Notes: generated by a model from the letters alone, not told the origin. Counted from the first letter of the stretch, positions 9,809-59,116 are shown. The stretch is 64,000 nt of DNA from a virus (IMGVR_UViG_3300048904_000202:68007-132006); one strand, 5' to 3'. Translations and numbers: made by a program.

Positions 9809-9950
9809 CAGGCGGCGTCCTCCCAGCCTTGGGCGATGCGGCGAAGTTCATCTGCGATCTCCTTGTGGCTCAACACCTCCAGCGCGCTATTGCACGCCAG
9901 ATCGACTTCCTCGCCGAGCTTGATGACGGCCTCTGCGTAGCTCGTGTCCA

Positions 9951-13121: not shown

Positions 13122-13499
13122 AGCGGGACGTTCCATCCCTTGCGCTCGAACTGCCACGCATCCGCCGTGAAGTCGGTGGTATAGGCGACCTTATTCCTCT
13201 TGAAAGCCCACACCGGGCCGCCACCGGTGCGGAAGGTGTTGGCGATCTCCGTTGCCGGCATTTCACGGTAGAACCCGATACGAATCAGGATCGTTCGACA
13301 CGCGTCGATCATTCGCCGGTCGCGGTTGTCCTCGGCGGCCCGCTCGACATCAAACAGCACCGACAGCATGTCCCAAGTGTGCCCCTCATCGTTCTCGAAC
13401 TCGATGTCGAGTTGGTATTCGAGTTCCTGTATCAGGAACTCGGGGGCTTCGGACTGGATGAGCGCGATGGCGTCTTGGCGAGTGATGATCTCAGGCAAC
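13118..13499 (-). CDS. hypothetical protein
   Basis: Start revised to TTG overlapping upstream stop. Confidence 0.4.
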
Positions 13500-13703
13500 G
13501 ACTTCGACCTTCTCCTCGGGATGGAAGAGTTCGAAGCTGCGCCCGCCAGCAAACACCACCAATCTGGCACACCTATCCGCGTGTCCGGGAAGCGCCATTC
13601 GCCATTTCCGTGTAACCTTGTTCGCGGTGACGCATACCGGGCCGCCGCCATCTAGCTTGATGCGCTGACCCACCTTCACGTCCTTGGCGGCGACCATTGT
13701 CAT
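13491..13703 (-). CDS. hypothetical protein
   Basis: 70-aa ORF, ATGA overlap. Confidence 0.45.
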   Translation of the reverse strand: MTMVAAKDVKVGQRIKLDGGGPVCVTANKVTRKWRMALPGHADRCARLVVFAGGRSFELFHPEEKVEVVA

Positions 13704-18234: not shown

Positions 18235-18452
18235 AATTTCAAGTGTTCCCCGTTACAGGCCTTGGTCAACCAGAGCGCTCCGATGACCGGTGGGTGTTGA
18301 TGCCATGGTTCTCCACAGACCTCGCACAAACAGTTCTGATCTGTCCGCCTACACTCACAAGCATCGAACCTGATGCGGTCTTCCTCCGACAGCAGATGAT
18401 AGGCATTGCCATTATGGTCATGCTGTTGTCGGAGGTCGAAAGGTATCATCAA
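18231..18452 (-). CDS. Cys-rich small protein
   Basis: 73 aa with CECRRTDQNCLCEVCGEPWHQH cluster; ATGA overlap with nadV. Confidence 0.45.
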   Translation of the reverse strand: MMIPFDLRQQHDHNGNAYHLLSEEDRIRFDACECRRTDQNCLCEVCGEPWHQHPPVIGALWLTKACNGEHLKL

Positions 18453-19945: not shown

Positions 19946-19957
19946 GTCGGCTCCCTT

Positions 19958-21047
19958 CTAAATGGTCAGATCGCGGAACGAGTTCAGGTAGAACTCGAAC
20001 GGATTGTAATGATCCTCGAACAGCATCGAGCGGACCACCTCGTCGGTATTCCACCACCGTGCCTGCCGGGCATCGTCGGCGCCCTTCACGATAGGACGCG
20101 GCAGCGATGCCGGGATCAGCAGGCCGAACGCCATCGAGAAGGTGACTTCGCGGTTCGAGCGCCACGGGTTGTCCAGCATCTTCTCGCCGCGTATCCACGA
20201 CGCGAGCGTGTCGCGGGTGATGAAGTCGTTGTGTTCGACGATGCCGGTTTCCTGATCGACCTCGTCGAGCGCCGCGTCGAGGAAGGTCTGGTAGGCGCGC
20301 TTGTGTCCGCCGGGCGATGCCCAGAGACCCTTGCCGGGCATACGATCGCGCTGCACGAGGCAGACGGCGCCGGCATGGAACATCCACATGTCAGCACACG
20401 GGAACTGCTGCGGATCGCCGGTGTAGGGATTGGGCTGGAACTCGGTCAGATAGTTTTTCATGAACTTGTACTCGTCGCGCATGAGCGCGAACTGAGCCGT
20501 GTTCACCCACTGGCGCAGGAACAGATAGGTGCCCTGCGGAATGATCTGGACCTCCGAGCGGTAGATGCACTCGACCGCCGCTGCTGGGTCCCCGGCGTCG
20601 TAGATCGTGTTGCGGATGTCGGTGGCCGAGACCAGAGAATCGGTCGCACCGGTGACAGCCTGCGTCGAGACCGAATCCCAGCCTCGGAATAGCTTGAGGT
20701 AGTAGGACGATCCGTCCTTGGAGAAGCCGACCAGCGCAATGCGGGGCTCGTGATCGAACGACAGGCGCTTGGCCTGCTCGGTCACGACCTTCTGCACGTC
20801 GCGCACCCAGAGCAGGTCGTTGGCGCGGTCCTCGATCCCGAAGATGAATACGCGATCGTTCTCGGCCGGCGTGAGCGACGCTCGGATCATCTGGCTCACC
20901 TCGTCGAAGGTGTGCGGGTTCTTGAAGTGTGGCGCTTCGTTGACCGATCCGATGGTCACGAATGTATATTGTGCCGCGACCAAGCCGGCGCGGATGTTAG
21001 CGATATGAGCGCTGGTGGGTGGCCGCATCCGGCCTGCGAAAACGCAG
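19958..21047 (-). CDS. nadM: bifunctional NMN adenylyltransferase / Nudix hydrolase (NadM-Nudix-like)
   Basis: TTG start after CTAGGGAGACACAAC; N-terminal GRMRPPTSAHIANI resembles the GRFQPFHxGH nucleotidyltransferase motif; C-terminal degenerate Nudix box GGHKRAYQTFLDAALDEVDQETGI. Confidence 0.7.
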
Positions 21048-21069
21048 ATATCGTGCAAGTTGTGTCTCC

Positions 21070-21531
21070 CTAGTTGTTGGCGATGATGTTCACTTCGATG
21101 CCGAAGCTCTCTTCGAACTTTTTGGCGAGTTCGCGGAGCGTCTTTCGGGCATCGTTCTCGTTGCCGCCAGCAGGTCCAAGCTGGATGTAGGAGGCAACCC
21201 ACGAGGTATTCTCGATGCATACACGGAGGATCGCCTTTTCCAGATTGGTCAAGGGCTCCGCCAGCGTCAGCATGTAGACCATTTCACAAAGGCCCGTGGA
21301 TGCCTCCATGATCGCCTCGCGATTCCAGCCTTCCTTTAGGAGGATCGCTAGCGGGTCTGTCGGGTCTTCCGGCTCGCGCTCCGGGAGATCGCTAATTTGT
21401 GCAAGGCCCCACATCATGGCCTCAAGTTCTTTGGTCTGGAGGCGCAGCCTCGCGTGATTCTCGGTCATATGCACTCCTAAGTTGAGTGCGAGTAGCAGCG
21501 CCCAGCCATTTTTGCTAGTGGGAATGAGCAT
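21070..21531 (-). CDS. hypothetical protein
   Basis: 153-aa ORF; stop TAG overlaps the nadM leader; a 56-aa ORF (about 21534-21704) lies upstream. Confidence 0.45.
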   Translation of the reverse strand: MLIPTSKNGWALLLALNLGVHMTENHARLRLQTKELEAMMWGLAQISDLPEREPEDPTDPLAILLKEGWNREAIMEASTGLCEMVYMLTLAEPLTNLEKAILRVCIENTSWVASYIQLGPAGGNENDARKTLRELAKKFEESFGIEVNIIANN

Positions 21532-22802: not shown

Positions 22803-23136
22803 AATACTCCTTTCTCACTGCGTCACCCAGCGGGTGGAGTTGCCAGTATTCGTCCGCGCCGATCTCGCGCCACGGCATGCCGTAGTGGGCTGCGATCGGT
22901 GGCATGATATGTTCGAGCAGTGCCTTCTTCTTGTCGCGCCAAATGAAACCGGTCTGAACCGCGAGCGATCCATCGAGCCCGAAGATGTCATAACCGATGT
23001 CGTAGGCGATCTGCGTCAACGGGCTAACGTGGTGACCGAGCGGTACCTTAACGAAGCCTTCCCCGCGCCGCTTGGGAACGAGGATGTTGACCTCGTAAGT
23101 ATCCGGACGCGCCAATACCAATAGTTCTTTCATCAA
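22795..23136 (-). CDS. hypothetical protein
   Basis: 113-aa ORF, TGATGATG overlap with the 772-aa gene. Confidence 0.5.
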   Translation of the reverse strand: MMKELLVLARPDTYEVNILVPKRRGEGFVKVPLGHHVSPLTQIAYDIGYDIFGLDGSLAVQTGFIWRDKKKALLEHIMPPIAAHYGMPWREIGADEYWQLHPLGDAVRKEYYD

Positions 23137-25451
23137 CGCCGCCGGTGCTTTTGATCGATACCGTCCTCGTCGTACTCAGCCCAATTCGAGTGATCGGCGA
23201 AACTTCGATTACCGTGGCCGCCGGTCCGGATGACCCAACCAGTCGAACGAGCGTCTGACATGTCTGGTAGCTCAGGCGCGGTCAGCCGGTTGCGGATGCG
23301 CGCGAGCGCCCGCTTCGACAGCGCGACCCGGACGCCGAAGTCCAACTGGTGCCATGGATTCTGGAGCCGCCATTCGAGCGGATCGATCCGATCGAGGATC
23401 GAGTTGCCGGTATAGGCGTCATCCATGCCGGGGTTCCACATGCGCAGAAACAGTGGCAACTCATCCACCGGTACGCCGGTAATCTCGGCCAAGTCTTCGG
23501 GACAGCCGGGACGGACCTGCAAGGCGTAAGTCGATCGGGTGTCGTCGAAGTAGCAGAGGTATGCACCGCCGCGCGATTGCGTCCAGCCGTTGCTCAAGGT
23601 GATCTGCGAGTCGGACATGTAGCCCCATTCGTACAAGCGATCGGTGCCCTTCTCCTTGGTCCACGCCTCGATGTCGATTAGGCGCGAGAAAGTATAGCGG
23701 TCCCAGCCGGTCCAGATTTTGTGAGCGTCCACATTTTTTTCGCCGAACCAGTCCTCGCCAGTCTCGATATTGGCGTCGAAGGCACGCGTGCCGGCGGGGC
23801 GCTTGTGTTCGATATGCTCGCCCTCGGGAAAGCAAGCATAACGCAGCACGTTGTCGATGTTCGCTTCGACGCGCTCGCGGTACCATTTGAGGATGCCGGG
23901 ACGCTCGCGTACGAACTCATCATCGGCGGCGCGCTGGATGCCTCGGGCAAAGTTCGATCGAGCGATGAACTTGCGATCCGCGTCGATCTGCTCGCGGGTG
24001 CCGAAGTTGGTCGCGTTCACCGCATCCACTGGATAGGCACGGACACCTTCCGGGAGCTTTATGCCGAAGGTCGTGTTGACGCCTTTCTCCGTGGCCGGAA
24101 GGTGCGAGATCGCGTTGTCAGTACGGACGGGGACATCCTTGCGGCCCCACGTCTCGCCCTTCTCGACCGGCTTGCTCAAGAGGTAGGGCTTTTCGGTCGC
24201 CACGCCGCCATGGGCGAGTAGGTTCAGGGCCTGCTCGGGCACGAGGTGACCGTAGCGCTCCTCCAGCCACTTGTTGCGGCCGAAATTGTGCTTCTGGTTG
24301 CCATATGGCTTGCCCACATCCTTCTCGGTCAGCGCACCGGTACGAACGTCGTCCACGGCTAGCGGCGCGAGGCGTAGCGGCTCATATCCGGTAATCGGCA
24401 GATTGGCGTTGACGGCCGCCGAGAGGAGGACGTTCTGGTCCTCCAGTCGAAGCATCTCGGTGGTGTAAGAAAGCTGGCGCTGTGGGAACGGCTGGTTCCA
24501 ATACTTTTCGACCAGCAAGTCAAACACCTGAACCAGCCACGCCGCCGTGACGATCTCCAACTCGCCAAGCTTGGCAAACTCGAAGAACTCCGGCTGGTGT
24601 CCGACCAGACCCTTCTCGTGGCTCTGGCGGTACTTGTCGTGATACGGATCGCCCTTCTCATTGTAGCCGATGTTGAGCTTGTCGTAGGGAAACCAGTTCT
24701 TGCCCACGCGCCGACTATGCTCACGATCCGGGCGGCGCGACATCTGCCGGGCGAACGGATGCGTGTATTCTGGCACGTCGGTGATCAGCAGCAGGTTGCC
24801 GCCGTTCCGCAGCGCGATGGCGAAATAGCTCTGGAGTTCGTCGGGGTCGCGGACAAGGTTCAGCGACATGCCACTCGGCATCGAACAGGCGTGTTCAACG
24901 AGGCTGTTGACGTTCCAGTACGAATACATGACCGGGTTGTAGAGCGGACGCACCTCGGGAGGATCAATCTCGCCGGTGAGGAACTGATCAGTCCGCATCC
25001 GGTCGGCCGACTTGAGCGCGTCATTGCGGACCTGCGCGACGTAGGCGTCCTTGCTCAGGAACTCTCCGATCGCGTCGCCGTCACATCCGATATGGACCAG
25101 CGCCTTGCGAAGCTGCTCGCGGTAGGTGTCTGCCGCTTCGAGGATCGTCACGTCTTTGATGAGCTTCTTGAACTCACGGACCTTCGAGATGTAGTCGAAG
25201 ACGTAATCCTCGTCGGCGTCGATCTCGGCGATCGACATCGTGGCCTTCTTGAAATACCACGACGAGATGTCGGCCAGCAGCAGGTAGGCGGTGACCAGAG
25301 TTGGGTCGAGTGTCATCGACTCCTTGATCTCGTCGTTCGCCTGCTGGAGGTTGCGCTTTCCCCAATCGTAGCTCTCGGAGTTCGGGTCCATGCCGATCAA
25401 CTCGAACCACAGGGTGATAGCCCTGTTAAAATGTTCTGCCGAGGTGATCAT
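23133..25451 (-). CDS. large ORFan protein (772 aa)
   Basis: Longest ORF in the window; no Walker or other motif recognised; preceded by a variant promoter-leader. Confidence 0.65.
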   Translation of the reverse strand: MITSAEHFNRAITLWFELIGMDPNSESYDWGKRNLQQANDEIKESMTLDPTLVTAYLLLADISSWYFKKATMSIAEIDADEDYVFDYISKVREFKKLIKDVTILEAADTYREQLRKALVHIGCDGDAIGEFLSKDAYVAQVRNDALKSADRMRTDQFLTGEIDPPEVRPLYNPVMYSYWNVNSLVEHACSMPSGMSLNLVRDPDELQSYFAIALRNGGNLLLITDVPEYTHPFARQMSRRPDREHSRRVGKNWFPYDKLNIGYNEKGDPYHDKYRQSHEKGLVGHQPEFFEFAKLGELEIVTAAWLVQVFDLLVEKYWNQPFPQRQLSYTTEMLRLEDQNVLLSAAVNANLPITGYEPLRLAPLAVDDVRTGALTEKDVGKPYGNQKHNFGRNKWLEERYGHLVPEQALNLLAHGGVATEKPYLLSKPVEKGETWGRKDVPVRTDNAISHLPATEKGVNTTFGIKLPEGVRAYPVDAVNATNFGTREQIDADRKFIARSNFARGIQRAADDEFVRERPGILKWYRERVEANIDNVLRYACFPEGEHIEHKRPAGTRAFDANIETGEDWFGEKNVDAHKIWTGWDRYTFSRLIDIEAWTKEKGTDRLYEWGYMSDSQITLSNGWTQSRGGAYLCYFDDTRSTYALQVRPGCPEDLAEITGVPVDELPLFLRMWNPGMDDAYTGNSILDRIDPLEWRLQNPWHQLDFGVRVALSKRALARIRNRLTAPELPDMSDARSTGWVIRTGGHGNRSFADHSNWAEYDEDGIDQKHRRR

Positions 25452-27187: not shown

Positions 27188-27343
27188 CCGTGCGTTTCCC
27201 TTGTACGGTCGCGTCTTGGTCCGCGAACATTTGCTACGTTTGCCGGTCGGCCACAGGCCGATCTTGTTGATCTTCCCACACCGTGCGCAAACTACCTTGT
27301 TCGCTCGCAGCGGTAGTATCTGGGCATGGAAGACGTGATTCAT
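27184..27343 (-). CDS. small zinc-ribbon protein (52 aa)
   Basis: Below ORF cutoff; ATGA overlap with AAA+ stop; CARCGKINK...KCSRTK motif. Confidence 0.4.
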
Positions 27344-28566
27344 GCCGCGAGCAGCATCTGGCGCATCTCGGCACCCGACATCGACACGTCGGTCGAGACG
27401 GCGAAATTGCTCGGGTCCTTCCCGAAGAGGGCCGCCATGCGCTGAAACTCCGAAAAGCCGAGGTCGCGCAACTCGATCGCCATATCGAAACGGCCCGGCC
27501 GGCGGAGCGCTTCGTCGAGGCGCTCGGGATGGTTCGTTGTCGCGATCGTCATGAGGCCGTCAGGCGCGATCAGGCCGTCGAGGATGTTGAGCATCGCCGA
27601 GAGCGTCACCGGCTTCTTGGGGCCGTCAGGTCCTTCTTCGCCTGTCGGGGCAGGGTTTTGCGCCGGCACGTTCCGATTGGTGTTCGCGCCGGCCGCGTCG
27701 AAGTCCTCCAGCACGAGAAGCTTTTTGTTCCAGTCCTGCCCATTCGCGACGAGATCGGTAAGCACCTGATCGCTGTCCACCGAACCGAGGTTCAGATAGT
27801 AGATCGAGCGGCCGAGGGCGGACGCCAGCGCGTGAATGAGAGACGATTTACCATTGCCCGGCGGTCCGTAGAGCAGCACGCCGATGCGGTGAGGAAGACC
27901 GAGGCGGTGGTTCTCTTCACGCTTGGTCGAGAACTCCGCGAGGCGGTTGAGGATCATATTCGCCGCGTCGTCTGCGGTGAATATGGTATCCATGCTCCGC
28001 AAGGGCAGCTTGCCGGCGCGATTCCACCACGAGCCCGAGTTGATGTAGAGCGGGACGGAGGTAAACTCTTCGTCCGAGGTACCCGCCATGCGCTTCACGT
28101 CCTCGGCGAAAGCCTCGACCACCCTCTTCGATCGTGTGAAGAACGTGACCTCGGTGTGTTCCTTGAACTTCGAGGTGTTGTCCGCTTCCTCGCGCTGGCG
28201 ATGTACCAACACGAGATGGCGGCGATAGAAACCGATGTGCGTACCATAGCCGACAGCAAGGCCGTGGTGCTTGGTCTGGTAATCTTCTTCGATCGAGTCC
28301 CACTTCTCCTCGGCCGAATAGTTGAAGTTGCGAGCGGTCTTCTGCCACACGACATTCTTCGTCACGTAGCGGACCACGGCGTCATAGTCCGGAAGGTCGT
28401 TGTTCCAACGGACCTCTACCGTGACGCACTTCTTGAGGAAGCCCCAGAGCTTCATCGGTACCGACCGCATCAGGTAAGTCGCGGTGGTCGCCGGCCCGGC
28501 GACGAGGGCCGCCTGCATGATCTGGTTGTGCTGGACCATGCTGGACAGAGAGGCGAACAGGCTCAT
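27340..28566 (-). CDS. BCS1-like AAA+ ATPase
   Basis: Walker A LLYGPPGNGKSSLIHALA, Walker B LLVLEDFDA, sensor region SAMLNILDG, TTNHPERLDEALRRPGRFD; about 190-aa N-terminal BCS1_N-like domain; start revised to MSLFASL. Confidence 0.8.
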   Translation of the reverse strand: MSLFASLSSMVQHNQIMQAALVAGPATTATYLMRSVPMKLWGFLKKCVTVEVRWNNDLPDYDAVVRYVTKNVVWQKTARNFNYSAEEKWDSIEEDYQTKHHGLAVGYGTHIGFYRRHLVLVHRQREEADNTSKFKEHTEVTFFTRSKRVVEAFAEDVKRMAGTSDEEFTSVPLYINSGSWWNRAGKLPLRSMDTIFTADDAANMILNRLAEFSTKREENHRLGLPHRIGVLLYGPPGNGKSSLIHALASALGRSIYYLNLGSVDSDQVLTDLVANGQDWNKKLLVLEDFDAAGANTNRNVPAQNPAPTGEEGPDGPKKPVTLSAMLNILDGLIAPDGLMTIATTNHPERLDEALRRPGRFDMAIELRDLGFSEFQRMAALFGKDPSNFAVSTDVSMSGAEMRQMLLAA

Positions 28567-43005: not shown

Positions 43006-43286
43006 TGGACGGTCTGCCGATTGAGCCAGTCATAAAACTCCGGCCATTCGGCGGCGGCGTCGCCCTGATCCCAAGCGCGGAGAAACTCAACGGCGTTGGC
43101 GCTATCGTGGTCGGGGTTGACGTACAGCAGCCACTTGACCGCTTGCGCGGCCGTTCCGTGGTCGCCGGCAGGGCGGCCGGTTTTCGCGATCGGCTTACCC
43201 TTTGGTGCGTTCGTTTCAGTGTGCATTAGAATTGAATCCATATTTTGGACGGTCCTCCGACCGTCTGTTGGGTGAGCGTGGCGCAT
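43002..43286 (-). CDS. hypothetical protein
   Basis: 94-aa ORF. Confidence 0.4.
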   Translation of the reverse strand: MRHAHPTDGRRTVQNMDSILMHTETNAPKGKPIAKTGRPAGDHGTAAQAVKWLLYVNPDHDSANAVEFLRAWDQGDAAAEWPEFYDWLNRQTVQ

Positions 43287-44266
43287 CCGTCATTCGCACG
43301 CAGCCACTTGAGGGCGTCGATTTTCGGGATACCTGCGGTGGCACAAGCGGCGATCAAATCAGAGAGCCACATCCCACTAACATCCTGATCGAACAACTGG
43401 TCGATCACGTCGTCTACGGTCTTTTCAGGGAGATGAGAGATGCCTACAAAATTCACCTTGTTGTCGTAGAAGATCGCAACACCTGTTCGATCCTTACCGC
43501 CGGGGTCTATACCGACGACAATCCTACTTCGCTTAGAGATACCATGATGGATCGCGGATGATCCCAAGCCGCCACGGTGGATGAGTTTGGCTTTAGGAAG
43601 GGGTGGGACCACCGCCGGGGTAGGTGATGCGACCGGGGCCGTGACCTTGATGCGATCGTGCTTCGATACCTCGTAGCAGCGACAGTACCTACAATATTCC
43701 GGATTGGTGTGGTGGCACAGTTCGCCCGTGTTTCCATTGATCCGAACCGTGGGCTGCTCGACATACCAGAAGATATTGATCATGTCGGATCGACCGGCTG
43801 GAACTTCACATGCCGGGCTTACACCATCAACGGTCTTATAAGCTCCGATCGGATCGTAGGCACGATCGCGGCGATCAACGGTGAAGTGAGTCACCGAGTT
43901 CATTCCGTCCGATTTATAGATCGAGCGGAACTCGGAGAGCATGGCCTGTTTGTTGTTACCGCACCGCGAAGCGATAGTATCGAACTCGAAGCGCGCCATG
44001 GTGGACATGCTGGTCAGGACACGCAGGGGTTCGGTCGGCGGGAAGAAGCTCAGGCGGCGAGGAGGCTTGGGCAGAGCGCGCCAGATCAGGCGACCGGAAG
44101 CCAACATACCGCTACCCAGCGCAGCGAGGAGCATCGTCGTCACACTCATTGAGGCCGGCGCATGAGTGGCAAGCCAGATCGTCGTCACCATGAAGATGAT
44201 GACCGTTGTCAGTATCCAACGATCGAACCGATCGAAGTTCCGGAAGCCGGTCATCTCGGTGTTCAC
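43226..44266 (-). CDS. membrane protein with C-terminal RuvC-like (GIDPG) segment
   Basis: Two N-terminal TM helices, central Cys cluster (CHHTNPEYCRYCRC), then RIVVGIDPGGKDRTGVAIF resembling RuvC/YqgF motif I. Confidence 0.5.
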   Translation of the reverse strand: MNTEMTGFRNFDRFDRWILTTVIIFMVTTIWLATHAPASMSVTTMLLAALGSGMLASGRLIWRALPKPPRRLSFFPPTEPLRVLTSMSTMARFEFDTIASRCGNNKQAMLSEFRSIYKSDGMNSVTHFTVDRRDRAYDPIGAYKTVDGVSPACEVPAGRSDMINIFWYVEQPTVRINGNTGELCHHTNPEYCRYCRCYEVSKHDRIKVTAPVASPTPAVVPPLPKAKLIHRGGLGSSAIHHGISKRSRIVVGIDPGGKDRTGVAIFYDNKVNFVGISHLPEKTVDDVIDQLFDQDVSGMWLSDLIAACATAGIPKIDALKWLRANDGCATLTQQTVGGPSKIWIQF

Positions 44267-48300: not shown

Positions 48301-48685
48301 CCTTTTTCATCTGCCGCAAATAGTCCGCCGCGTAGCCTCGCATGATCTTCCGTTCCGCCTCAAGAAGCTCTTCTTCTCGGCGAGCCCGCGCCAGACGCAT
48401 GGCCTGTCGCTCCATGTGTTTCAACGTCAGGGTGGCTGGCACCGTCGCCGAGAAGTTTGCGATAATGTTGCCGAGGCCGCCGAAGAACGTGTCACGCATG
48501 TCGTAGACCATAAACTCGATTCGGGTCGGTGAATGGATCACAACGTCATAGGCGAACCACGTCAACTCGGCCGGCTTATTCGCAAGGAAAACACCTCGAA
48601 AGTCATAGGAACTGCTTGTGAAGTGAGGTGTCTCTTCCGCGTAGAGGGTGAAGGGGAATAGCTGTTGGGGTTTGCTCCTGCTCAT
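48293..48685 (-). CDS. hypothetical protein
   Basis: 130-aa ORF. Confidence 0.45.
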   Translation of the reverse strand: MSRSKPQQLFPFTLYAEETPHFTSSSYDFRGVFLANKPAELTWFAYDVVIHSPTRIEFMVYDMRDTFFGGLGNIIANFSATVPATLTLKHMERQAMRLARARREEELLEAERKIMRGYAADYLRQMKKAA

Positions 48686-49404
48686 ACATCCTCCTTCGCT
48701 TTGATCTCGGCGATCAGCGCCGCTCCCCGCTGCTCCATAAAAGCCTTCGCTTTCGCTCGCGTTCCGGTCTGTTGTTCCAGCCGATCGGCGAGCTTGCGCA
48801 GGTTGTCGTAGCGGCGTTGCATGGCCGGTGGCATCTGCGAATACATGGACGGCACGGGTGCCTTCTCGTCGCGCAGAGGCTTGTCGAAGTGCAGGCTATA
48901 GACCTGATTGAAGGCGACAAACATGTCGCCGACGAACCGCTCCAGCGCGTGAGCCCATACCGGGTCGATCTTCCCGGCCGGGGCGCGGAACATCATCGCG
49001 ACGCCATAGGCACCCTCGAACGTGTCGAGGAGATAGTTGTCGAGTTGGTGGTAGCCGTAGTCGCTCCGGCCGCCGTACTTGCACAACAGGTCGATATGCT
49101 CGGCGCGATATAGGCGCTCGCGGCGCTCCAGTTCGTTCTCGATCCGAATCGTGCGTGCGAAGTCGTCGTCGCGGTTCCACTCCGCATCCATCCGCGCCAG
49201 ATCGGAGATGTTGATCGGACCATCGAAGTCCTTGGTGAGCTTGTGTGCTGGGACGACACAGCCCTTGCGGTTCCACACGTAGTTCGTGCCGCTGTCGGTG
49301 AAGATGCTGTACAGCGCGACCGGCCGCGACGGATAGAGCGTCGGGTAGGTCAGCATCATCTCACGGACCAGCACGTCCACCTTGTTCAGAGGTGCGTCGT
49401 TCAC
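48682..49404 (-). CDS. hypothetical protein (about 240 aa)
   Basis: GTG start in GTGA overlap with upstream 79-aa gene; ORF-track version (364 aa) reads through that gene and the promoter. Confidence 0.45.
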   Translation of the reverse strand: MNDAPLNKVDVLVREMMLTYPTLYPSRPVALYSIFTDSGTNYVWNRKGCVVPAHKLTKDFDGPINISDLARMDAEWNRDDDFARTIRIENELERRERLYRAEHIDLLCKYGGRSDYGYHQLDNYLLDTFEGAYGVAMMFRAPAGKIDPVWAHALERFVGDMFVAFNQVYSLHFDKPLRDEKAPVPSMYSQMPPAMQRRYDNLRKLADRLEQQTGTRAKAKAFMEQRGAALIAEIKAKEDV

Positions 49405-49640
49405 AGGCCATGCTCCCCACGGACGCGCTTGCCGAACGAGATGCCGTCCGCGATCCACATGCGAGGGCGTTGATCTTTTAGGTAGGCGCACATGACGCTC
49501 TCGTTCTCGTACACCAGCCGCTTGTTGTCCTCGGTGAGGAGCGGCGTGTTGTCGAAGATGTAGTAGTGATAACCCTCGCCGCGATACAGCGTGACCAGCG
49601 GTTCGACCTTCTGGATGCGGGCGTTGATCTCGTTGAGCGT
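49401..49640 (-). CDS. hypothetical protein
   Basis: 79 aa starting right after GAATCAGGGAGACACCAC leader. Confidence 0.45.
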   Translation of the reverse strand, partial: TLNEINARIQKVEPLVTLYRGEGYHYYIFDNTPLLTEDNKRLVYENESVMCAYLKDQRPRMWIADGISFGKRVRGEHGL

Positions 49641-49710
49641 CATGTGGTGTCTCCCTGATTCGTCCTGATGCGAATCGTCTAGGACAAATCTTAGGGTGCG
49701 TCAAGCGTCT
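49641..49710 (-). promoter_or_regulatory. conserved promoter-leader cassette with GATTCG/CGAATC hairpin
   Basis: rc: GACGCTTGACGCACCCTAAGATTTGTCCTAGACGATTCGCATCAGGACGAATCAGGGAGACACCACATG. Confidence 0.5.
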
Positions 49711-49886
49711 TTCTTCGTCGGTCGTGGGATCACCACGTCCGCCGGAATGATGCGTTCGTGCCGGGAGACGAAGCAAGCCTTTTCATGGGTGTCCCATGTC
49801 TCCTTGGAGATAAAGGACTTGTTGCAGAACTGGCACCAGTAACTACGACCGCCCATTGTACCGCCGGCCATAGCGATCGGAATCAA
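49701..49886 (-). CDS. small zinc-finger-like protein
   Basis: 61 aa; CQFCNKSF...HEKAC. Confidence 0.35.
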   Translation of the reverse strand: MIPIAMAGGTMGGRSYWCQFCNKSFISKETWDTHEKACFVSRHERIIPADVVIPRPTKKDA

Positions 49887-52311: not shown

Positions 52312-52694
52312 GCGGTCCTCGGAAAGTCGTAGTTAGGGCGGTGGTCGTCACCCCACGACACGGAACTGACCAGTCGGCCATCCGGCTCGTAAGAGTGGCG
52401 GGCGAAGAAGTATCGGATGTTCACATGCCAATGCGGGTAGGATTCGCTCGGCGTCTGGATCAGGATCGAGACATATGGGTCACCCCAACGAGCGGCCTCG
52501 TCCTCGGCGAACCGATGGGCGTAAGCATTGCAGTCAAAAAGACCTTGGAACGACCACTTGTTCTCGACCCATTCATTGTGGGTATTGTGAGCCAGTACCC
52601 AGACGGCCGTGTGATCAAAGGGCTGCGGTACGCCTAGGAACGGCGGTAGTTGCGGAAGCGCCCGATCATAGCCGGGCAAAGTTGTTAGACTCAC
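52308..52694 (-). CDS. hypothetical protein
   Basis: 128-aa ORF. Confidence 0.45.
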   Translation of the reverse strand: MSLTTLPGYDRALPQLPPFLGVPQPFDHTAVWVLAHNTHNEWVENKWSFQGLFDCNAYAHRFAEDEAARWGDPYVSILIQTPSESYPHWHVNIRYFFARHSYEPDGRLVSSVSWGDDHRPNYDFPRTA

Positions 52695-53182
52695 GCGGCG
52701 TACTCAGTTGCGTATTCCGACGATCTCCACCACGCGAGCGGCGACTTGAAAGCGTTATAGCGTTCGAAGAGGATGTCTTCGGGGATACGATGGTCCTCGG
52801 GACGTGTCCGGTTACGCTCCGCCAGCAAGGGAAGAGGGCGGTCGAACACCACCAACCGAACAGGCAAGTTCAAGCGCTCGGCATAAGAGATGAACGGCGC
52901 GACTGCCGGCTGATCTATTCCGGTATCGGTGACCGCCCAAGAAGGCTCCGGCCAATAGAACAACGCGTTGAGCATTGCTTGTGTCACGACGGCGCTGCAC
53001 TCCGCACGATCGAACTCGCTGGCGTGATAAGCCTTCCGTGATCCGAACAGACACTCGCGAAAGCGGTCACGTTCCAAGCGCAGTGTGGACGCCGCAAGGT
53101 TGGCGTCGGCCCATGTTGACTTACCGGCGCCGGGGCAGCCGATCGTGATCGTCAGGCCGTTGTAGCGATCACCGTGGATCAT
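52691..53182 (-). CDS. polynucleotide 5'-kinase (T4 Pnk kinase-domain-like, no phosphatase domain)
   Basis: LTITIGCPGAGKSTWADAN nearly identical to T4 Pnk P-loop (ILTIGCPGSGKSTWAREF), followed by RLERDRFRE and conserved downstream blocks; ends after about 160 aa. Confidence 0.75.
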   Translation of the reverse strand: MIHGDRYNGLTITIGCPGAGKSTWADANLAASTLRLERDRFRECLFGSRKAYHASEFDRAECSAVVTQAMLNALFYWPEPSWAVTDTGIDQPAVAPFISYAERLNLPVRLVVFDRPLPLLAERNRTRPEDHRIPEDILFERYNAFKSPLAWWRSSEYATEYAA

Positions 53183-53326
53183 GACGGTCCTCATAGATCG
53201 AGTTGGCGGGACGGATCACCCAGCCGAACATGTTGGCGAGTTGGCGGCGCATCCATGGGGTCGATTCACGTGATGTGGCGGCGACGACTTGGTCCCACGA
53301 GGAGCCTTGGGATTTGGCAGTGATGG

Positions 53327-53620
53327 TCATGCCGCGAGTTCCCGCAGGTATGTGATGACCGCTGGGTTTCCTTTCCCACCGAACCGATCGTTTTCTTCGT
53401 AGATCATCCGACGAACATGTCGCGGTATCTCAGTATCGTTGGCAGTGGCGACATTGAGTTCCTTCATGATGCGACCCATGGCGCAGAAACAAACAGCTTC
53501 GGGCGAGGAGCTAGTAACGCGTTCACCTAGAGCGTTCGCGGCCAGATAGCCGGCGATGTGCTTGTCCGGATTGGCTTCCAGCCAGTCGGCGGCCCGGAGA
53601 ATAGCTTCCTTGTTCATGCC
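53327..53620 (-). CDS. paralog family member P5 (MNKEAIxRAADWLEANPDK...CFCAxGRI...YLRELAA)
   Basis: 97 aa; start ATGAACAAGGAAGC in ATGA overlap with P4 stop; a 57-aa ORF fills 53197-53330. Confidence 0.55.
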   Translation of the reverse strand, partial: GMNKEAILRAADWLEANPDKHIAGYLAANALGERVTSSSPEAVCFCAMGRIMKELNVATANDTEIPRHVRRMIYEENDRFGGKGNPAVITYLRELAA

Positions 53621-53955
53621 GCGAGCCTCCGCAGGTGCGCGACGACCGCCGGGTTTCCATTCGGCCACACGTTATTAGTCGGAATCAAATCGCGATCGTT
53701 GACGCGCCAGATATCCATGGATTGCTCTTTATCGAGCCCCACCGCGCGGTTGATGGTGTCGTAGCTTCTCGTACCGGGCGGTGAATCCACATTGGCTTCC
53801 AGAGCAATTCTCCCGAGGGCGCAAAAGCATTCCGCCAATGGTGATGTAGGTGAACACCGCTGACCAAGGACATCGATCGCCAGCGATCCGGCGATGTGCT
53901 TGTCCGGATTGGCTTCCAGCCAGTCGGCGGCGCGGAGGATAGCTTCCTTGTTCAT
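53614..53955 (-). CDS. paralog family member P4
   Basis: 113 aa; ORF-track start (54129) extends into the upstream gene, so start revised to MNKEAILRAADW. Confidence 0.55.
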   Translation of the reverse strand: MNKEAILRAADWLEANPDKHIAGSLAIDVLGQRCSPTSPLAECFCALGRIALEANVDSPPGTRSYDTINRAVGLDKEQSMDIWRVNDRDLIPTNNVWPNGNPAVVAHLRRLAA

Positions 53956-54704
53956 ACGAAATACGGTGTCCTGTCCTTGAACCCGTTGAGTGCCTTGGTC
54001 TCGCGAATGTATTCGTAGAGCTTGGCAAGTAGGTCCGGGTCGTGTTGGCGAGGATCGATGCGCGCGGTGAGGATCGCGTCGATCGCTTCGATGTTCTGGG
54101 CGGCGAGTTCGTCCCTGCCGCAAAAGCAATCGGGGATGCGGGCATATTCCTCTGCGACCGCCGGCACCTCAAAGAGGCGGCAGAGTTCTAGAATTTCGGT
54201 CTTCGAGAAGACATTGATCGGCTGGACCGACACGCTCTTGGCGAGTGCGGTATAGGTTCCCAACGCCTTCTCGGTGTTGTTCATTGTCCCTACGACCCAG
54301 AAGTTCTCACCGGGGTCGCGCACCGTGACCTTGACGCTACCGAACTCATCGACCGCGACGTGGTTTAGCGCCCGCAGGTGCAAGTCAGCCCAGCGCTGTG
54401 GGTCGAAGTTCCCGCCGAGTGGCGACAGACATTCTACCTTGGCGGACGGGCAATGCCGCGCCAGCCACCACAGAATGTTGGCCTCGAACCAAGTGGGCTT
54501 ACGCCGTTGGTGATCCGCATAGTGGATGCCCCAGACGCGATCGGCGATTCCCATAATCTCCGCCGCCTCATAGACGAGAGTGAAGGCGATGATGCTGTCG
54601 GTGCCGGACAGGCCCATGAGGAGGCCGGGGACCGGGGTCTGCGACATTCGCATTTTCGCGACGAGACGATCCCGCGCGCGGAGGAATTTGTCAGCGACGC
54701 TCAT
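53952..54704 (-). CDS. NadE-like PP-loop ATP pyrophosphatase (NH3-dependent NAD+ synthetase-like)
   Basis: LLMGLSGTDSIIAF matches NadE LVLGISGGQDS; later VVGTMNNTEKALGTYT matches NadE VVGTDHAAEAITGFFT; start revised to MSVADKF (ATGA overlap with P3). Confidence 0.55.
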   Translation of the reverse strand: MSVADKFLRARDRLVAKMRMSQTPVPGLLMGLSGTDSIIAFTLVYEAAEIMGIADRVWGIHYADHQRRKPTWFEANILWWLARHCPSAKVECLSPLGGNFDPQRWADLHLRALNHVAVDEFGSVKVTVRDPGENFWVVGTMNNTEKALGTYTALAKSVSVQPINVFSKTEILELCRLFEVPAVAEEYARIPDCFCGRDELAAQNIEAIDAILTARIDPRQHDPDLLAKLYEYIRETKALNGFKDRTPYFV

Positions 54705-55078
54705 GCCGCGAGCTTCCGCAGGTACGGGATCACATCCGGATTGCCGCGCCATAGCGGCTTCTCGGCGGTCTCCATGGTGTCCACGTCATAACGTTCATTG
54801 ATCGCATCATTGAGCTTGACGATCGCGGCGAACTGCGTGCCGTCGAGGCCGGAGATGTGGTAGAACCACCGGCGGTTGTCGCGATCGACGCCGTGCATGG
54901 AAGTCGGGGCCTCGCCACACTCCTTGGCAATGCGACCGATGGCGCAGAAGCACTCGGCGTCAGGGTGGTTGGGACCAACATAGTCACCGGCGGCGTTGGC
55001 CGCGTAGAAGGCGGCCATGTGCTTGTCGGGGTTCGCTTCCAGCCAGTCGGCGGCGCGGCGGATAGCTTCCTTGTTCAT
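54701..55078 (-). CDS. paralog family member P3
   Basis: 125 aa; shared N-terminus MNKEAIRRAADWLEANPDKH, CFCAIGRI, C-terminus YLRKLAA. Confidence 0.55.
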   Translation of the reverse strand: MNKEAIRRAADWLEANPDKHMAAFYAANAAGDYVGPNHPDAECFCAIGRIAKECGEAPTSMHGVDRDNRRWFYHISGLDGTQFAAIVKLNDAINERYDVDTMETAEKPLWRGNPDVIPYLRKLAA

Positions 55079-55410
55079 GCGAGTAATTCCCTGAGGGTGG
55101 CGGCCATGTATCGGGCGGCGGTTTTTGGCGGCATCGCCTCGACGACGGCGTCGTTGATCTCGGTCAGCCTATCCAAAGTCTCGAAGGACAGGCCGGTGAC
55201 GCGAGGAAACAGTTCTTGGGGCCGGTGTGCGACTGTCGCCTTGACGCCAGTCTCGTGAATCAATCGACCTACCGTGCAAAAACACACGGCGAGGCTTCCG
55301 GTCGGTCCTGTCCTGCGGCCCTCCGCAGTGCGGGCGAAATCACCGGCAAGCAGCTTGTCGGGGTTACGCTCGATCCAGTCGGCGGCGCGGCGGATTGCTT
55401 CGACGTTCAC
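55075..55410 (-). CDS. paralog family member P2 (most diverged)
   Basis: 111 aa; GTG start in GTGA overlap; MNVEAIRRAADWIERNPDK...CFCTVGRL...LRELLA. Confidence 0.55.
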   Translation of the reverse strand: MNVEAIRRAADWIERNPDKLLAGDFARTAEGRRTGPTGSLAVCFCTVGRLIHETGVKATVAHRPQELFPRVTGLSFETLDRLTEINDAVVEAMPPKTAARYMAATLRELLA

Positions 55411-55685
55411 GCGGTCACCTTGGCATTGTCGAGGAGGGCGATCATGTTCCGAAGCGCCATGGCATGGCGTTCGAAATAGCCCAGTCGGAGCATATTGAAG
55501 TCCCGCTCCCGGATGTAGAATCCGACACTAGACGAGAAGGCACTCCGCTCTGCTATGGCGATAATGTTGTTCGCCATCTGCGTGTGGGCGCGGCTGTTAC
55601 GTCCCTTGTCTTCGGCGTCGGTAAGCATCTGCTCCAACGCCTCACGGTCGTTCGCGGCGTAATCTCTGGGATCATAATATTTCAC
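55407..55685 (-). CDS. hypothetical protein
   Basis: GTG start in GTGA overlap with upstream stop; ORF-track start overlaps neighbour by 100 nt. Confidence 0.4.
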   Translation of the reverse strand: MKYYDPRDYAANDREALEQMLTDAEDKGRNSRAHTQMANNIIAIAERSAFSSSVGFYIRERDFNMLRLGYFERHAMALRNMIALLDNAKVTA

Positions 55686-56074
55686 GCCGCGAGCCTTTCC
55701 TTGATGTGTGAGGCGTAGACCGCTTTGCCCCGGATGCGACCGCGCGCCGCCGGGTGGACGATCTGGATATGCGGTGTCGCCCACCGGCGAAGATGTGCGG
55801 CGACCTTCTCGCCCATCGCGACAACCGTCCAGCCGGCGCGGTGTGCCTGATCGACGACATCGCCGCTGCGGACGCGCGGCAGTTCGATCGCGTCAGGGTG
55901 GTCGCCGAACAGGTTGAAGAATTGGACACACGTCGTGTCGGTCGGATCGATCCCGAGCGGCTTGAGCGCGTCGAAGAGTTGTTTGGCTGCCAGACCGCCG
56001 TCCTGCCACGTGATGTTCTTGGCGTGGGCGGTTGGGGAGGGCTTCTCTCCTACGAAGAAGTATCGCTGGGTCAT
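55682..56074 (-). CDS. small protein with UDG-superfamily-like motifs
   Basis: 130 aa; FFVGEKPS (cf. GE[AG]PG) and IVHPAARG (cf. HPAA/HPSP); ends ...KERLAA like the paralog family. Confidence 0.4.
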   Translation of the reverse strand: MTQRYFFVGEKPSPTAHAKNITWQDGGLAAKQLFDALKPLGIDPTDTTCVQFFNLFGDHPDAIELPRVRSGDVVDQAHRAGWTVVAMGEKVAAHLRRWATPHIQIVHPAARGRIRGKAVYASHIKERLAA

Positions 56075-56385
56075 GCCGCGAGTTTCCGCAGATACGTGAT
56101 GACGGTCGTCTTGCTGCTGGCAGTGTCGTTCATGGACCAGATGTCCGAGGACTGGTCAAAGGTCAGACCGGCAGCCTTCTGGATAGGCTCATAGCCGCTG
56201 ATGCGGGGGATCACATGGACGCCGGCTTCCTTCGCAATGCGGCCGAGCGCGCAGAAACATGTCGCTCGTGAAGATGTCGGCGAGACGGGAGTTCCGAGGT
56301 CCGTAGTCGCTAGGTCCCCTGTGATATGCTTGTCGGGATTTGCTTCCAGCCAGTCGGCAGCGCGGAGAATGGCGTCACGGTTCAA
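56071..56385 (-). CDS. paralog family member P1
   Basis: 104 aa; TTG start in TTGA overlap; MNRDAILRAADWLEANPDKH...CFCALGRI...YLRKLAA. Confidence 0.55.
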   Translation of the reverse strand: MNRDAILRAADWLEANPDKHITGDLATTDLGTPVSPTSSRATCFCALGRIAKEAGVHVIPRISGYEPIQKAAGLTFDQSSDIWSMNDTASSKTTVITYLRKLAA

Positions 56386-56738
56386 AGGTGGCTCCCTTCG
56401 TTAAGATCATTGAGGAGGCTGGCGAACTTCTCCGCCCAGCGCAGGCCGCGAAGGGTGGGTTCGAACCGGGCGACAATACCGTTACCGGGCAAGAAGTGCG
56501 GGTCGAGGATGCGCCGCGAACGCGGGTCCCATTCGGTCACCAACACCTTCTTGCCCTCGAAGTTGGTGCAACCGGGGTAGCTGATCATCGACACGAACAG
56601 GTCGCCGACTGGCTTAACCGTCTCGACGACGAAGTTGTCCGGCGTCGGTGCAGGTCCGGGCTGGTTGGCCGGCGGGTCCCAGATCGTGCGATTGCCGGCG
56701 GCCGAGCGCAGACCAGCGGAAGCGAACAGGCTGCCCAT
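56382..56738 (-). CDS. hypothetical protein
   Basis: 118-aa ORF. Confidence 0.45.
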   Translation of the reverse strand: MGSLFASAGLRSAAGNRTIWDPPANQPGPAPTPDNFVVETVKPVGDLFVSMISYPGCTNFEGKKVLVTEWDPRSRRILDPHFLPGNGIVARFEPTLRGLRWAEKFASLLNDLNEGSHL

Positions 56739-57209: not shown

Positions 57210-57842
57210 TCAGTCACAACCCCGGCACGAGAAGTCGATCGTGCCACGCGCCAGCTTGGTGCCGAGAAGCGCGTCCATCTTGTCCCAGAACTCGTCGTAG
57301 GAGTGGTAGTGATTGATCCACCACGGTTCATCATCGGTGGTTGACCAGCGCATAGCGTCGCTGATCATGTCGTCGTAGGGGACGCCGGCATCGCGAGCGA
57401 AATTGCGCAACCACAACATGGCTTCGAAATGTGCGGATCGGCTGTCAGAGCCGGCAGGCGCGGTTTGTTCGGGTGCCGCAAGCGCTACATCGGACGGTGC
57501 GAATGCCGGATGATCCCAGACGTGGCGCAGCGTTGAAATCTGGCCGGGATTGAGCAGCATGAGGAAGCGCTCGCCCTTGCGGACATTGCACTTGAGGTAC
57601 GGATCGACGACGCCGAGCGCGTGACGAGTGGTCATGCCCGAGTGGCGGTCACCACCATGCGGCGCGGCGACGGCCGTACCGTCTTCGAGCAGACCGATCG
57701 GACAGCCGGGTTTCAGTTCCTCGGCGGCGGTGACGGGCTCGACCGCGATGTGGATCGCGTCGCGCTTGACGGTGTGATCGATGATGCATCCCAGCACGCG
57801 TAGGGCGTCGGTGTCGGGTGTGCGGGTGTCGGCGGATGCCAT
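57210..57842 (-). CDS. hypothetical protein (210 aa)
   Basis: ORF with 1-nt overlaps at both ends. Confidence 0.5.
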   Translation of the reverse strand: MASADTRTPDTDALRVLGCIIDHTVKRDAIHIAVEPVTAAEELKPGCPIGLLEDGTAVAAPHGGDRHSGMTTRHALGVVDPYLKCNVRKGERFLMLLNPGQISTLRHVWDHPAFAPSDVALAAPEQTAPAGSDSRSAHFEAMLWLRNFARDAGVPYDDMISDAMRWSTTDDEPWWINHYHSYDEFWDKMDALLGTKLARGTIDFSCRGCD

Positions 57843-59116
57843 TAAATGCCTCCTTCTTGAGCTATGTCCCAGCGCCGGCCGGCGCGAGGATCGGGTTTCT
57901 TTTCAGGCGGAGCGCCTCGTTGATCATTGGCGCCGCGTTGGTATTTCGCCTTGGACGCTTCGATCAGGTCCTTGGTGTCCTTGAGCATTTTGCGCTTGCC
58001 TATCTGGAAGTGCGGGTGATCGGGCTCGCGGCGGCGCGCCTCTTCCTCGGAGATGAACTCGCGCTTGGGCTTGGCGGCTAGACGTTCGCGCTCGCGCTCC
58101 AGCCACGCGTCGTTCTCGGCGTCGCGGGCCGCCTGCTGCTCACGCAACCGGTTCTCGCGGACCTGCTCCTCGACATCGGGATCGTCCTTGAACGCATCGA
58201 CGATGATCCGCGCGATCCGCGACGAGGCAGGACCGGCGGCCGCCAGTTCGTTACAGGCGTCGATCGCGTGATCGAGACGATTATGGGCGTGGATGCGGTT
58301 GCGCTCACCACGCTCCATCATCGGTTCGCGCGCCTTGCGGTTGAAGATGATATAGGGCGCGGACACCTGTTCCTCGCCCTTAGGCATGAAGCGGACCTCA
58401 TAGTCGCCGGCCCGGTAGTGGACCTCGCCGAGCGCCGGTTTTGGATCAGGCGCGATCTCGTAGAAATAGAGAGCGTCGCGCTCCGCATCATAGATCGAGG
58501 GGTAAATGACGGGCTGGCCGTTATCGTCGATCGCGACATAGAGGCCGCGTTCGTCGAGGATCGTCACCGCGTACTGGTTGACGAGATGTGGGAGATCGCC
58601 CGTCTGGTTGTTTCCACCCCGCGCCGCTCGGCCGCGCCTCTTCGCCTCGTTGGTGATGCAGCGCCAGACCTGCGCGATCGGGTTCGTGCCATCGACACAA
58701 ATCTGAAAGCGACTGGTGTTGAACCCATAGCGCGGCATCCGCTTCTGCGCCTTGGGACCGGGCTTGCCGGCCGTGGGCTTGTTCCTCGATCCCTTGGGCC
58801 GGCCGCGACCGCGCTTGGGGGTTTCGTCAGTGGCCGCAGGAGTCGCGGGATTGCCATAAGTCGATGAGCCAGATGGCGGCGCCTTAGTGGTCTTCGTGAC
58901 ATAGACCGCGAGGGACGCGTCGTTCGCCACAGTATCACGGGTGATCTTCTTCATCCCGCGCCGTGCGGACGCTTCGTCGGCGAAACCACGGATACGGCGT
59001 TCGCTGCCATAGAGCGGCTGGCGGTTGATCGTATGGACCTCGACCCAGTACGGATTCGCACTGGCCGGCACATGCACGAGCCGGTGGAGTCCATCACTGG
59101 TTAGGGGTTCACTCAC
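57842..59116 (-). CDS. AT-hook DNA-binding protein next to the iteron array (candidate replication initiator or regulator)
   Basis: 424 aa; GTG start; PKRGRGRPKGSRNKP AT-hook; first gene of the leftward block, about 200 bp from the iterons. Confidence 0.55.
   Translation of the reverse strand: MSEPLTSDGLHRLVHVPASANPYWVEVHTINRQPLYGSERRIRGFADEASARRGMKKITRDTVANDASLAVYVTKTTKAPPSGSSTYGNPATPAATDETPKRGRGRPKGSRNKPTAGKPGPKAQKRMPRYGFNTSRFQICVDGTNPIAQVWRCITNEAKRRGRAARGGNNQTGDLPHLVNQYAVTILDERGLYVAIDDNGQPVIYPSIYDAERDALYFYEIAPDPKPALGEVHYRAGDYEVRFMPKGEEQVSAPYIIFNRKAREPMMERGERNRIHAHNRLDHAIDACNELAAAGPASSRIARIIVDAFKDDPDVEEQVRENRLREQQAARDAENDAWLERERERLAAKPKREFISEEEARRREPDHPHFQIGKRKMLKDTKDLIEASKAKYQRGANDQRGAPPEKKPDPRAGRRWDIAQEGGI

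Follow-up and report, generated by a model that had tools for sequence, protein, structure and literature searches.

An array of divergent DUF6197-like paralogs in the accessory operon of a Lacusarx-like phage

Proteins of the Pfam family DUF6197 (PF19698) are known from phages and Actinobacteria, among them cluster A15 Gordonia phages, for which a genome announcement describes two copies plus a tandem two-domain variant (PMC10586128). Here we analyse an array of five small paralogous genes, P1 to P5, located at positions 53327-56385 of a 64,000-nucleotide (nt) viral sequence (IMGVR_UViG_3300048904_000202:68007-132006; this whole stretch is referred to as the window). The array resembles the Gordonia case (Nebulosus gp47 and gp72; PMC10586128) in having more than one DUF6197 gene per genome, and the likeness extends to single-domain and tandem two-domain genes that differ by an indel. 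The two differ in host (actinobacterial for the Gordonia phages, alphaproteobacterial here), in the canonical, Pfam-positive character of the Gordonia proteins, and in arrangement, with two copies there and five interleaved copies here. Sequence comparisons indicate that the five paralogs very probably constitute a divergent 'DWLEANPDKH' subfamily of the DUF6197 superfamily, which would explain their shared termini and junctions. The array adds a new branch, scoring below threshold, to a family that is known but has no assigned function, and multi-copy DUF6197 has already been noted in other phages. Our best overall explanation, with a probability of roughly 0.6, is an expanded DUF6197-superfamily array within a coupled accessory operon, the copies of which would make up a binding panel. 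The five genes are as follows (lengths in amino acids, aa).

56071-56385, minus strand: P1, DUF6197-like paralog, 104 aa; TTG start overlapping the upstream stop as TTGA; C-terminus ...YLRKLAA
55075-55410, minus strand: P2, most divergent paralog, 111 aa; GTG start; C-terminus ...LRELLA
54701-55078, minus strand: P3, paralog, 125 aa; C-terminus ...YLRKLAA
53614-53955, minus strand: P4, paralog, 113 aa; C-terminus ...HLRRLAA
53327-53617, minus strand: P5, shortest paralog, 96 aa; C-terminus ...YLRELAA

The products align end to end with 29 invariant columns, confirming the paralogy, conserved termini and motifs described in a first-pass annotation of this DNA. The coordinates given there also hold for P1-P4; the P5 boundary, placed at 53620, lies one codon too far and should be 53617. 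The invariant positions include M1, N2, D11, W12, N16, P17, D18, K19, C43, F44, C45, G48, R49, E53, N86, D87, L99 and R100. They fall in an N-terminal motif (MN.xAI.RAADW.E.NPDK), a core (A.CFC..GR...E), an Asn-Asp pair and a C-terminal motif (LR.L.A). P2 is the outlier of the alignment, with its RELLA end and no GNP motif. The genes are real, as judged from coding composition, independent gene calls and the number of homologs. GC content at third codon positions is 0.70-0.81 for P1-P3, the three paralogs present in a crude gene set. Gene products called by the Joint Genome Institute are identical to P3 and P4, match P1 except for the translated start codon, and include P5 in its 96-aa form. 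A word-indexed search returned 85 homologs, and an exhaustive profile search returned 2,970 metagenomic cluster representatives at E<=1e-3. Scans of the window for tRNA and tmRNA genes and for Rfam families gave no matches, and a promoter and terminator scan performed no better on the window than on shuffled sequence.

The first-pass annotation could not place these proteins in any known domain, a statement that no longer holds: profile-profile comparison ties the paralogs to DUF6197. An alignment of 84 family sequences compared by hhalign with three Pfam-positive DUF6197 proteins scored 97.4% (E 1e-11), and with 60 such proteins 98.7% (E 2e-16) over 110 columns. The searches with hidden Markov models (HMMs) and structure prediction that the annotation had proposed have thus been run; they found this link, and the structural neighbours were exclusively predicted, uncharacterised phage proteins. 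In direct comparison, P1 matches the Pfam profile with E 1e-3 and 19.8 bits (profile positions 10-110 of 111; the Pfam gathering threshold is 24.6 bits), P2-P5 have no Pfam DUF6197 match at E<=0.1, and 6 of the 84 relatives match PF19698 at E<0.01. Scores against the family HMM are E 1.2e-37 for P1 and E 2e-27 for P2.

The conserved positions tell the same story. C45, G48, N86 and D87 do not vary among the five paralogs and vary little or not at all across the 84-sequence alignment, and the same Cys, Gly and Asn-Asp columns are conserved in the canonical DUF6197 sets and in each domain of P0171, a metagenomic protein of 525 aa. The motifs CFC..G, ND and L(R/K)xAA are common to the paralogs and canonical DUF6197. 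On one phage contig, the relative P0019 lies ~6 kb from three Pfam-positive DUF6197 genes, the products of which present the same motif order (A.CFC..GA, WND, ...KKAA). Window-type and canonical proteins are alike in length (~100-130 aa), in the succession of an N-terminal helix, P-x-K-[W/H]-x-x-G, A-x-C-F-C-x-x-G and N-D, in a C-terminal helix finishing L(R/K)xAA, and in being present more than once per phage and in forming fused tandem domains. They differ at three places: canonical members have P-x-x-W-T-Q-G where the window subfamily has DWLEANPDKH; the Cys is followed by GA...R in the former and by GR...E in the latter; and the window subfamily stops straight after LAA, whereas canonical proteins end ...LRKAA, often with further residues.

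AlphaFold2 models of P4 and P5 have high confidence, with mean predicted local distance difference test (pLDDT) scores of 94.4 and 96.8, respectively, and a predicted template modelling (TM) score of 0.89 for each. Both have the same architecture: a helix at residues 3-15, a short β-hairpin region, a strand leading to C43-F44, a helix at 46-53/54, two further helices and a C-terminal helix. In P4 the helices span 3-15, 46-53, 65-72, 76-87 and 103-112, and in P5 the C-terminal helix covers residues 86-95 of 96. The conserved termini of the paralogs are therefore the first and last helices of the predicted fold. Indels are concentrated in two variable loops (~55-64 and 88-102 in P4 numbering), and the β-hairpin region also varies. 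A search of PDB libraries of solved structures produced no fold match to a paralog model. Foldseek against BFVD returned uncharacterised proteins of Caulobacter phage Lullwater, Achromobacter phage Motura (two proteins) and others at probability 0.96-1.0, with TM-scores of only 0.5-0.6. The matched phages infect Caulobacter, Achromobacter, Acidovorax, Rhizobium, Gordonia and Mycobacterium; several also have tblastn matches to canonical DUF6197, a correspondence at the level of the phage.

The invariant polar residues may form one functional site retained by every copy. Of the candidate residues, Cys45, Asn86-Asp87 and Gly48 are shared superfamily-wide, and Asp11, Trp12, Asn16, Arg49 and Glu53 subfamily-wide; the hairpin region and the two loops would vary around them. 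A single retained site with varied surroundings is most readily explained by a panel of binding proteins. The copies would then be made jointly as small cytoplasmic binding (possibly thiol-dependent) proteins directed against variant host targets or ligands, and the panel would act in host take-over or counter-defence. This functional assignment, to binding or thiol-dependent proteins aimed at host targets or ligands, is tentative; a counter-defence role is plausible. Fused DUF6197 proteins with two or three domains suggest that the modules may work together.

The same residues could instead be catalytic, making the paralogs small enzymes or redox proteins with an invariant Cys at the N-terminus of helix 2 (CxC) and Asn-Asp as catalytic partners. 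The conservation of Cys45, Gly48 and Asn86-Asp87 through both the subfamily and canonical DUF6197 agrees with such a role, and both models place Cys45, within CFCAxGR, at a strand-to-helix junction, a classic position for a low-pKa thiol. Even so, neither fold nor sequence resembles known Cys-dependent enzymes, and proteins of 96-125 aa in which so much of the surrounding sequence varies would be atypical enzymes. A CxC disulfide is not a general feature, since some canonical domains have Lys in place of the first Cys of CFC. We regard an enzymatic role as quite improbable. Two more specific candidates were rejected. A C-X5-R phosphatase-like loop (C43...R49) is incompatible with canonical DUF6197, where the Arg is not positionally conserved, and a DNA-mimic anti-restriction protein would be strongly acidic, whereas the isoelectric points of the paralogs are 5.5-7.8.

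Three unrelated genes are interleaved with the paralogs, a NadE-like enzyme, a mini protein of the uracil-DNA glycosylase (UDG) superfamily and a 92-aa open reading frame (ORF), as the first-pass annotation had described. Together with the two genes that directly flank the array they are:

56382-56738, minus strand: 118-aa gene, directly preceding the array; phrog_13501 (function unknown), E 5e-12
55682-56074, minus strand: mini UDG-superfamily protein, 130 aa; FVGEKPS...HPAARG...HIKERLAA; weak Pfam UDG match
55407-55685, minus strand: 92-aa ORF; GTG start in a GTGA overlap
53952-54704, minus strand: NadE-like PP-loop enzyme, 250 aa; phrog_11189 'NAD synthetase', E 8e-42
52691-53194, minus strand: kinase-only AAA_33 protein, 167 aa, directly following the array; P-loop TIGCPGAGKSTWA

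The NadE-like protein has sub-threshold matches to Pfam NAD_synthase and NCBIfam nadE, and is 56% identical to the product of a gene at 12794-13537 of the related phage contig L001 (Ga0540621_0000027), which is annotated PF02540. Its SGTDS is presumably the PP-loop motif, in the place where PP-loop enzymes carry SGGxDS. The UDG-like protein has 89 metagenomic homologs of ~105-220 aa (most 110-140), several of them pre-annotated as PF03167 and only some reaching Pfam UDG; it seems smaller than is usual for uracil-DNA glycosylases. The 92-aa ORF has no family match in Pfam, PHROGs, NCBIfam or PADLOC. The 118-aa protein is 55% identical to that of an ORF ending at L001 position 10004 (called as gene 9666-10004), which directly precedes the two family copies of that contig. 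The AAA_33 protein matches Pfam AAA_33 (E 1e-15) and phrog_505 'polynucleotide kinase' (E 7e-18), and we take its P-loop TIGCPGAGKSTWA to resemble that of T4 Pnk (polynucleotide kinase).

From 56385 to 53327, each of the nine consecutive junctions is a 4-nt overlap of stop and start codons (TTGA, ATGA or GTGA), in agreement with the overlaps described in the first-pass annotation. AGGA- or GGAG-like elements precede each (A/G)TGA, both here and in the related contigs L001, L012 and L015. At the paralog ends the LR[KRE]LAA codons themselves supply one: CTG CGG A/G.. gives a purine-rich, Shine-Dalgarno-like GGAG/GGAA-like element 8-13 nt before the next start, and the final GCA TGA provides the ATGA overlap for the following gene. 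Relatives in other phages retain the same junction arrangement with changed synonymous positions. The array would accordingly seem to form part of a long, translationally coupled accessory operon.

Three repeats emerge from a repeat search: one of 97 nt (5', five copies), one of 63 nt (3', four copies) and a core repeat of 44 nt (three copies). Only 0.04 occurrences of the junction pattern CGGRRRCTCGCGGCATGA would be expected, and four are found. The claim that each junction reuses one sequence is overstated, because the four CGGRRRCTCGCGGCATGA sites are the 3' coding ends of P1, P3, P4 and P5 only; it fails where P2, the NadE-like gene and the 92-aa ORF end, and the UDG-like gene end shares only CTCGCGGC and GTGA with the junction sequence. 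The junction sequence is also not a special element, being the paralogs' own 3' coding end.

Multi-copy arrays are the rule in this family, with 2-6 copies in related phage contigs:

L001: two adjacent family copies
L004: five family copies
L007: six family copies
L008: five family copies (three canonical, two of the window type)
L010: four family copies
L015: at least three family copies

In P0171, three tandem DUF6197 domains (Pfam E 4e-49 over three stretches) come after an unannotated N-terminal region of ~140 aa, and the protein is a fused counterpart of the gene arrays. Related phages differ in copy number, which is two in L001 and five in the window. L001 is syntenic with the window through a gene for a 424-aa protein, the phrog_13501 gene and then the array. 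The L001 array is free of interleaved genes, with the NadE-like gene 2 kb further on. In a neighbour-joining tree P2 is nearest to P0005, and both P2 and P3 are closer to orthologs in other contigs (P0005 and P0006, respectively) than to the other window copies, indicating that the paralog types are old; P0016 is a further ortholog of P2.

The ends of the copies have a different history from their middles. In the first 24 codons of P3, P4 and P5, 11 of 63 codons for identical residues differ synonymously, compared with 50 of 103 elsewhere (Fisher p=6e-5, in a test that treats non-independent paralog pairs as independent), and between the two L001 copies the count is 0 of 17. The codons CTC GCG GCA TGA are identical in four window copies and synonymously variable in other phages. 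Gene conversion or unequal recombination between tandem paralogs would fit these homogenised ends, with modest support from the codon comparison; low synonymous divergence near starts may also reflect translation-initiation constraint, which, like the pairing of the test, counts against a recombinational origin.

The junctions had also been proposed as natural recombination points. Homogenisation of the paralog ends within the genome agrees with this part of the proposal; a dedicated shuffling mechanism is not supported. In its strong form, the idea is that the conserved junctions serve as dedicated sites at which the intervening genes are shuffled as cassettes by programmed recombination. Variable middles do lie between the 97-nt and 63-nt repeats, the ends are homogenised, and the interleaved genes differ between the window and L001. 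However, the repeats are simply paralog coding ends and are missing from the 3' ends of the non-family genes, the tail of the UDG-like protein is inherited in its own family, and ordinary exchange between tandem paralogs, by homologous recombination or gene conversion, suffices. No recombinase or reverse transcriptase accompanies the array, and the only integrase-like gene is 45 kb away. Programmed shuffling is therefore very unlikely. A diversity-generating retroelement was also considered and rejected: the middles are far too divergent, and there is no reverse transcriptase among the proteins scanned, which cover part of the window.

P1, P3, P4 and P5 end in LAA with a free carboxylate, and P2 in LLA. 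The first-pass annotation read the tripeptide as a mimic of the ssrA tag, a reading that the wider family does not support: LAA is part of a family-wide helix motif, L(R/K)K(L)AA, past which most relatives continue. An [LIVM]AA end is found in 21 of 189 family representatives, nearly all from the nearest clade (P0001-P0017 and P0039). Other representatives extend the helix, as in LRKLAARI, LRELAASC and LRNLADQIEKNAR, and the domains of P0171 contain ...LRKAAKML, ...LRKAADGC and ...FRKAAMSF (one each). The tail is predicted to be helical up to the penultimate residue at pLDDT 96-98 (103-112 of 113 residues in P4, 86-95 of 96 in P5). From the sequences, the LAA end is best described as an inherited family helix cut by a stop codon in this clade and not as an appended ssrA mimic. 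Nor is the ERLAA tail of the UDG-like protein a shared design or junction scar, since the protein has this tail from its own family: four of its homologs, on unrelated contigs, also end ERLAA, and others end ERLAT, ERLAS, EVLA or in longer tails.

If the LAA ends were nevertheless ssrA-like degrons, the paralogs, the UDG-like protein and the AAA+ protein encoded at 27340-28566 would be short-lived substrates of ClpXP/ClpAP, with their action timed to early infection. LAA-COOH is reportedly the main ClpX determinant of the ssrA tag, and it terminates four of the five paralogs as well as the UDG-like and AAA+ proteins. In the nearest clade (P0001-P0017, P0039 and the five paralogs), 21 of 22 members end exactly in [LI]AA, the exception being P2. 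Ala-Ala C-termini are also enriched in the window, with 12 among 129 crude gene calls against 1.3 expected and Ala in the last position of 21% of calls; Ala-Ala ends occur in, among others, the integrase-like, AAA+, kinase and 421-aa proteins. This excess is partly tied to (A/G)TGA overlaps and is weak or absent in related loci, where professionally called genes give one non-family case in L001, three in L007 and none in L008. The paralog tail also departs from ssrA and other LAA-type ClpX degrons, which it matches in the last three residues of four copies, in being the last turn of a conserved helix that is neither appended nor predicted to be unstructured, and in having an LAA that is not conserved across the wider family. 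The motif continues in most relatives, P2 ends LLA, ERLAA is one variant among several in the UDG-like family, and the stop position is independently constrained by the ATGA overlap and the upstream Shine-Dalgarno-like codons. The inherited helix motif and the constraints of translational coupling thus explain the tail more simply, and degron function is unlikely. The well-packed, high-confidence helix in the models, unlike the unstructured tail that an ssrA tag forms, argues against a free degron, although recognition by ClpX may still occur. A ClpXP-timed lifetime is possible for the LAA-ending copies of the proposed panel, with a sequence that is explicable without it.

The source of the window is a Lacusarx-like siphophage of Sphingomonadales. 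This follows from the TerL of L001, which shares 68% identity with the TerL of Sphingobium phage Lacusarx and 64-67% with its counterparts in two Erythrobacter phages, from the window Nampt, which is 57-61% identical to those of the same three phages (60% for Lacusarx), and from a search of 185,579 species genomes in which the family matches only two short contigs of one Sphingomonas metagenome-assembled genome. Searches of a cultured-phage collection (by megablast, and by tblastn with P4) and of a plasmid collection (with P3) gave no match. The syntenic 32 kb of Lacusarx (L016, record positions 97750-130138) has no DUF6197-like gene, so the family is accessory within the lineage. Lacusarx shares the overall layout: one strand carries a RuvC-like gene and TerL, and the other a long, divergently oriented operon of small genes. 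Other features of the window are:

31-1221, plus strand: RtcB; phrog_1075, E 2e-137
7887-9296, minus strand: tyrosine-integrase-like protein, 469 aa; phrog_1, E 2e-25; found in a Lacusarx-like phage of probably ~164 kb
18449-19945 or 19958-21220, minus strand: Nampt, adjacent to the Nmnat-like gene; phrog_448, E 1e-120
Adjoining Nampt within 18449-21220, minus strand: Nmnat-like cytidylyltransferase and NUDIX fusion; phrog_395, E 2e-45; Pfam NUDIX
23133-25451, minus strand: unmatched large ORF, 772 aa; no significant Pfam or PHROG match
27340-28566: AAA+ protein with an LAA end
43226-44266, minus strand: unmatched large ORF, 346 aa; no significant Pfam or PHROG match
48682-49776, minus strand: unmatched large ORF, 364 aa; no significant Pfam or PHROG match
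57842-59116, minus strand: unmatched large ORF, 424 aa; weak sub-threshold EAD1 match only

The 424-aa protein is conserved and syntenic in L001, heading the operon that holds the array. At the edge of the L001 locus, positions 20202-20354 have a faint precomputed NADAR-DarT1 match and could represent an ADP-ribosylation-related counter-defence gene. The RNA-repair genes of the window are RtcB and the kinase-only AAA_33 gene after the array. Such genes (an AAA_33 kinase, an RNA ligase or RlaP) recur near family members in three other phage lineages (L012 825-2602; L008 5992-6486; L015 10418-11392), with AAA_33 near the family in L008 and L012. The phage carries three genes for synthesis of nicotinamide adenine dinucleotide (NAD): Nampt, the Nmnat-like fusion and the NadE-like gene inside the array. 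A Nampt and Nmnat pair defines the NAD+ reconstitution pathway NARP2 (bioRxiv 10.1101/2024.02.11.579819). On circumstantial grounds, the array sits in a counter-defence or host-take-over neighbourhood.

This neighbourhood invites comparison with the phage sponge proteins Tad1, Tad2 and Acb2, and proximity to NAD genes would be explained if the paralogs were signal sponges or acted directly to inhibit defence systems linked to NAD (Thoeris, CBASS, Pycsar or DSR). Like the sponges, the paralogs are small, soluble and almost exclusive to phages, and they lie in an accessory region beside counter-defence functions (the NARP2-like pair and RNA repair); they are also multi-copy, and their invariant W, R, D, N and E residues could form the walls of a nucleotide pocket. 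A NadE-like gene within the array and a NARP2-like pair in the same phage add to the case. Unlike the sponges, however, they resemble, in fold and in sequence, none of the solved structures in the libraries searched, which presumably include Tad1, Tad2 and Acb2, and PADLOC and PHROGs provide no links. The association with NAD genes is also loose: the Nampt/Nmnat pair is 33 kb distant, in L001 the NadE-like gene and the array are 2 kb apart, no NAD gene lies near the family in L004, L007 or L010, and the commonest neighbour is an RNA-repair-type kinase and not an NAD enzyme. A sponge or inhibitor role of this kind is quite unlikely.

Several points weigh against our preferred explanation, a binding panel built from DUF6197-superfamily copies. 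None of the five window paralogs passes the Pfam gathering score, and membership in DUF6197 rests on profile-profile comparison for that reason. PHROGs, PADLOC and NCBIfam have no match to the five paralogs or their 84 relatives, and literature searches found DUF6197 in a single genome announcement, which offers no functional evidence. There are no informative domain fusions, as the longer relatives have no other Pfam domain and the canonical DUF6197 matches are all single-domain. The gathering of the invariant residues into one site is putative, and the argument from genomic context is weak, because phage accessory genes cluster regardless of function.

It is a long shot, and in our judgement very improbable, that DUF6197-fold proteins, the window subfamily included, represent a large, unrecognised class of take-over or counter-defence effectors, with an invariant Cys/Asn-Asp site, arrays of 2-6 diversified copies or fused multi-domain proteins that would match variant host targets, and, in the window clade, a lifetime set in addition through ClpXP by LAA ends. 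The array reveals no new mechanism, and its LAA and junction features have ordinary explanations. What is gained is a family assignment, to the DUF6197 superfamily, for sequences that profile libraries leave unannotated, together with the recognition that multi-copy DUF6197-fold arrays recur in large phages of Alphaproteobacteria besides actinophages. Because the family is abundant, nearly restricted to phages, confidently modelled and structurally unrepresented, and has few invariant polar residues, it is a tractable subject for structure determination and for anti-defence screens.

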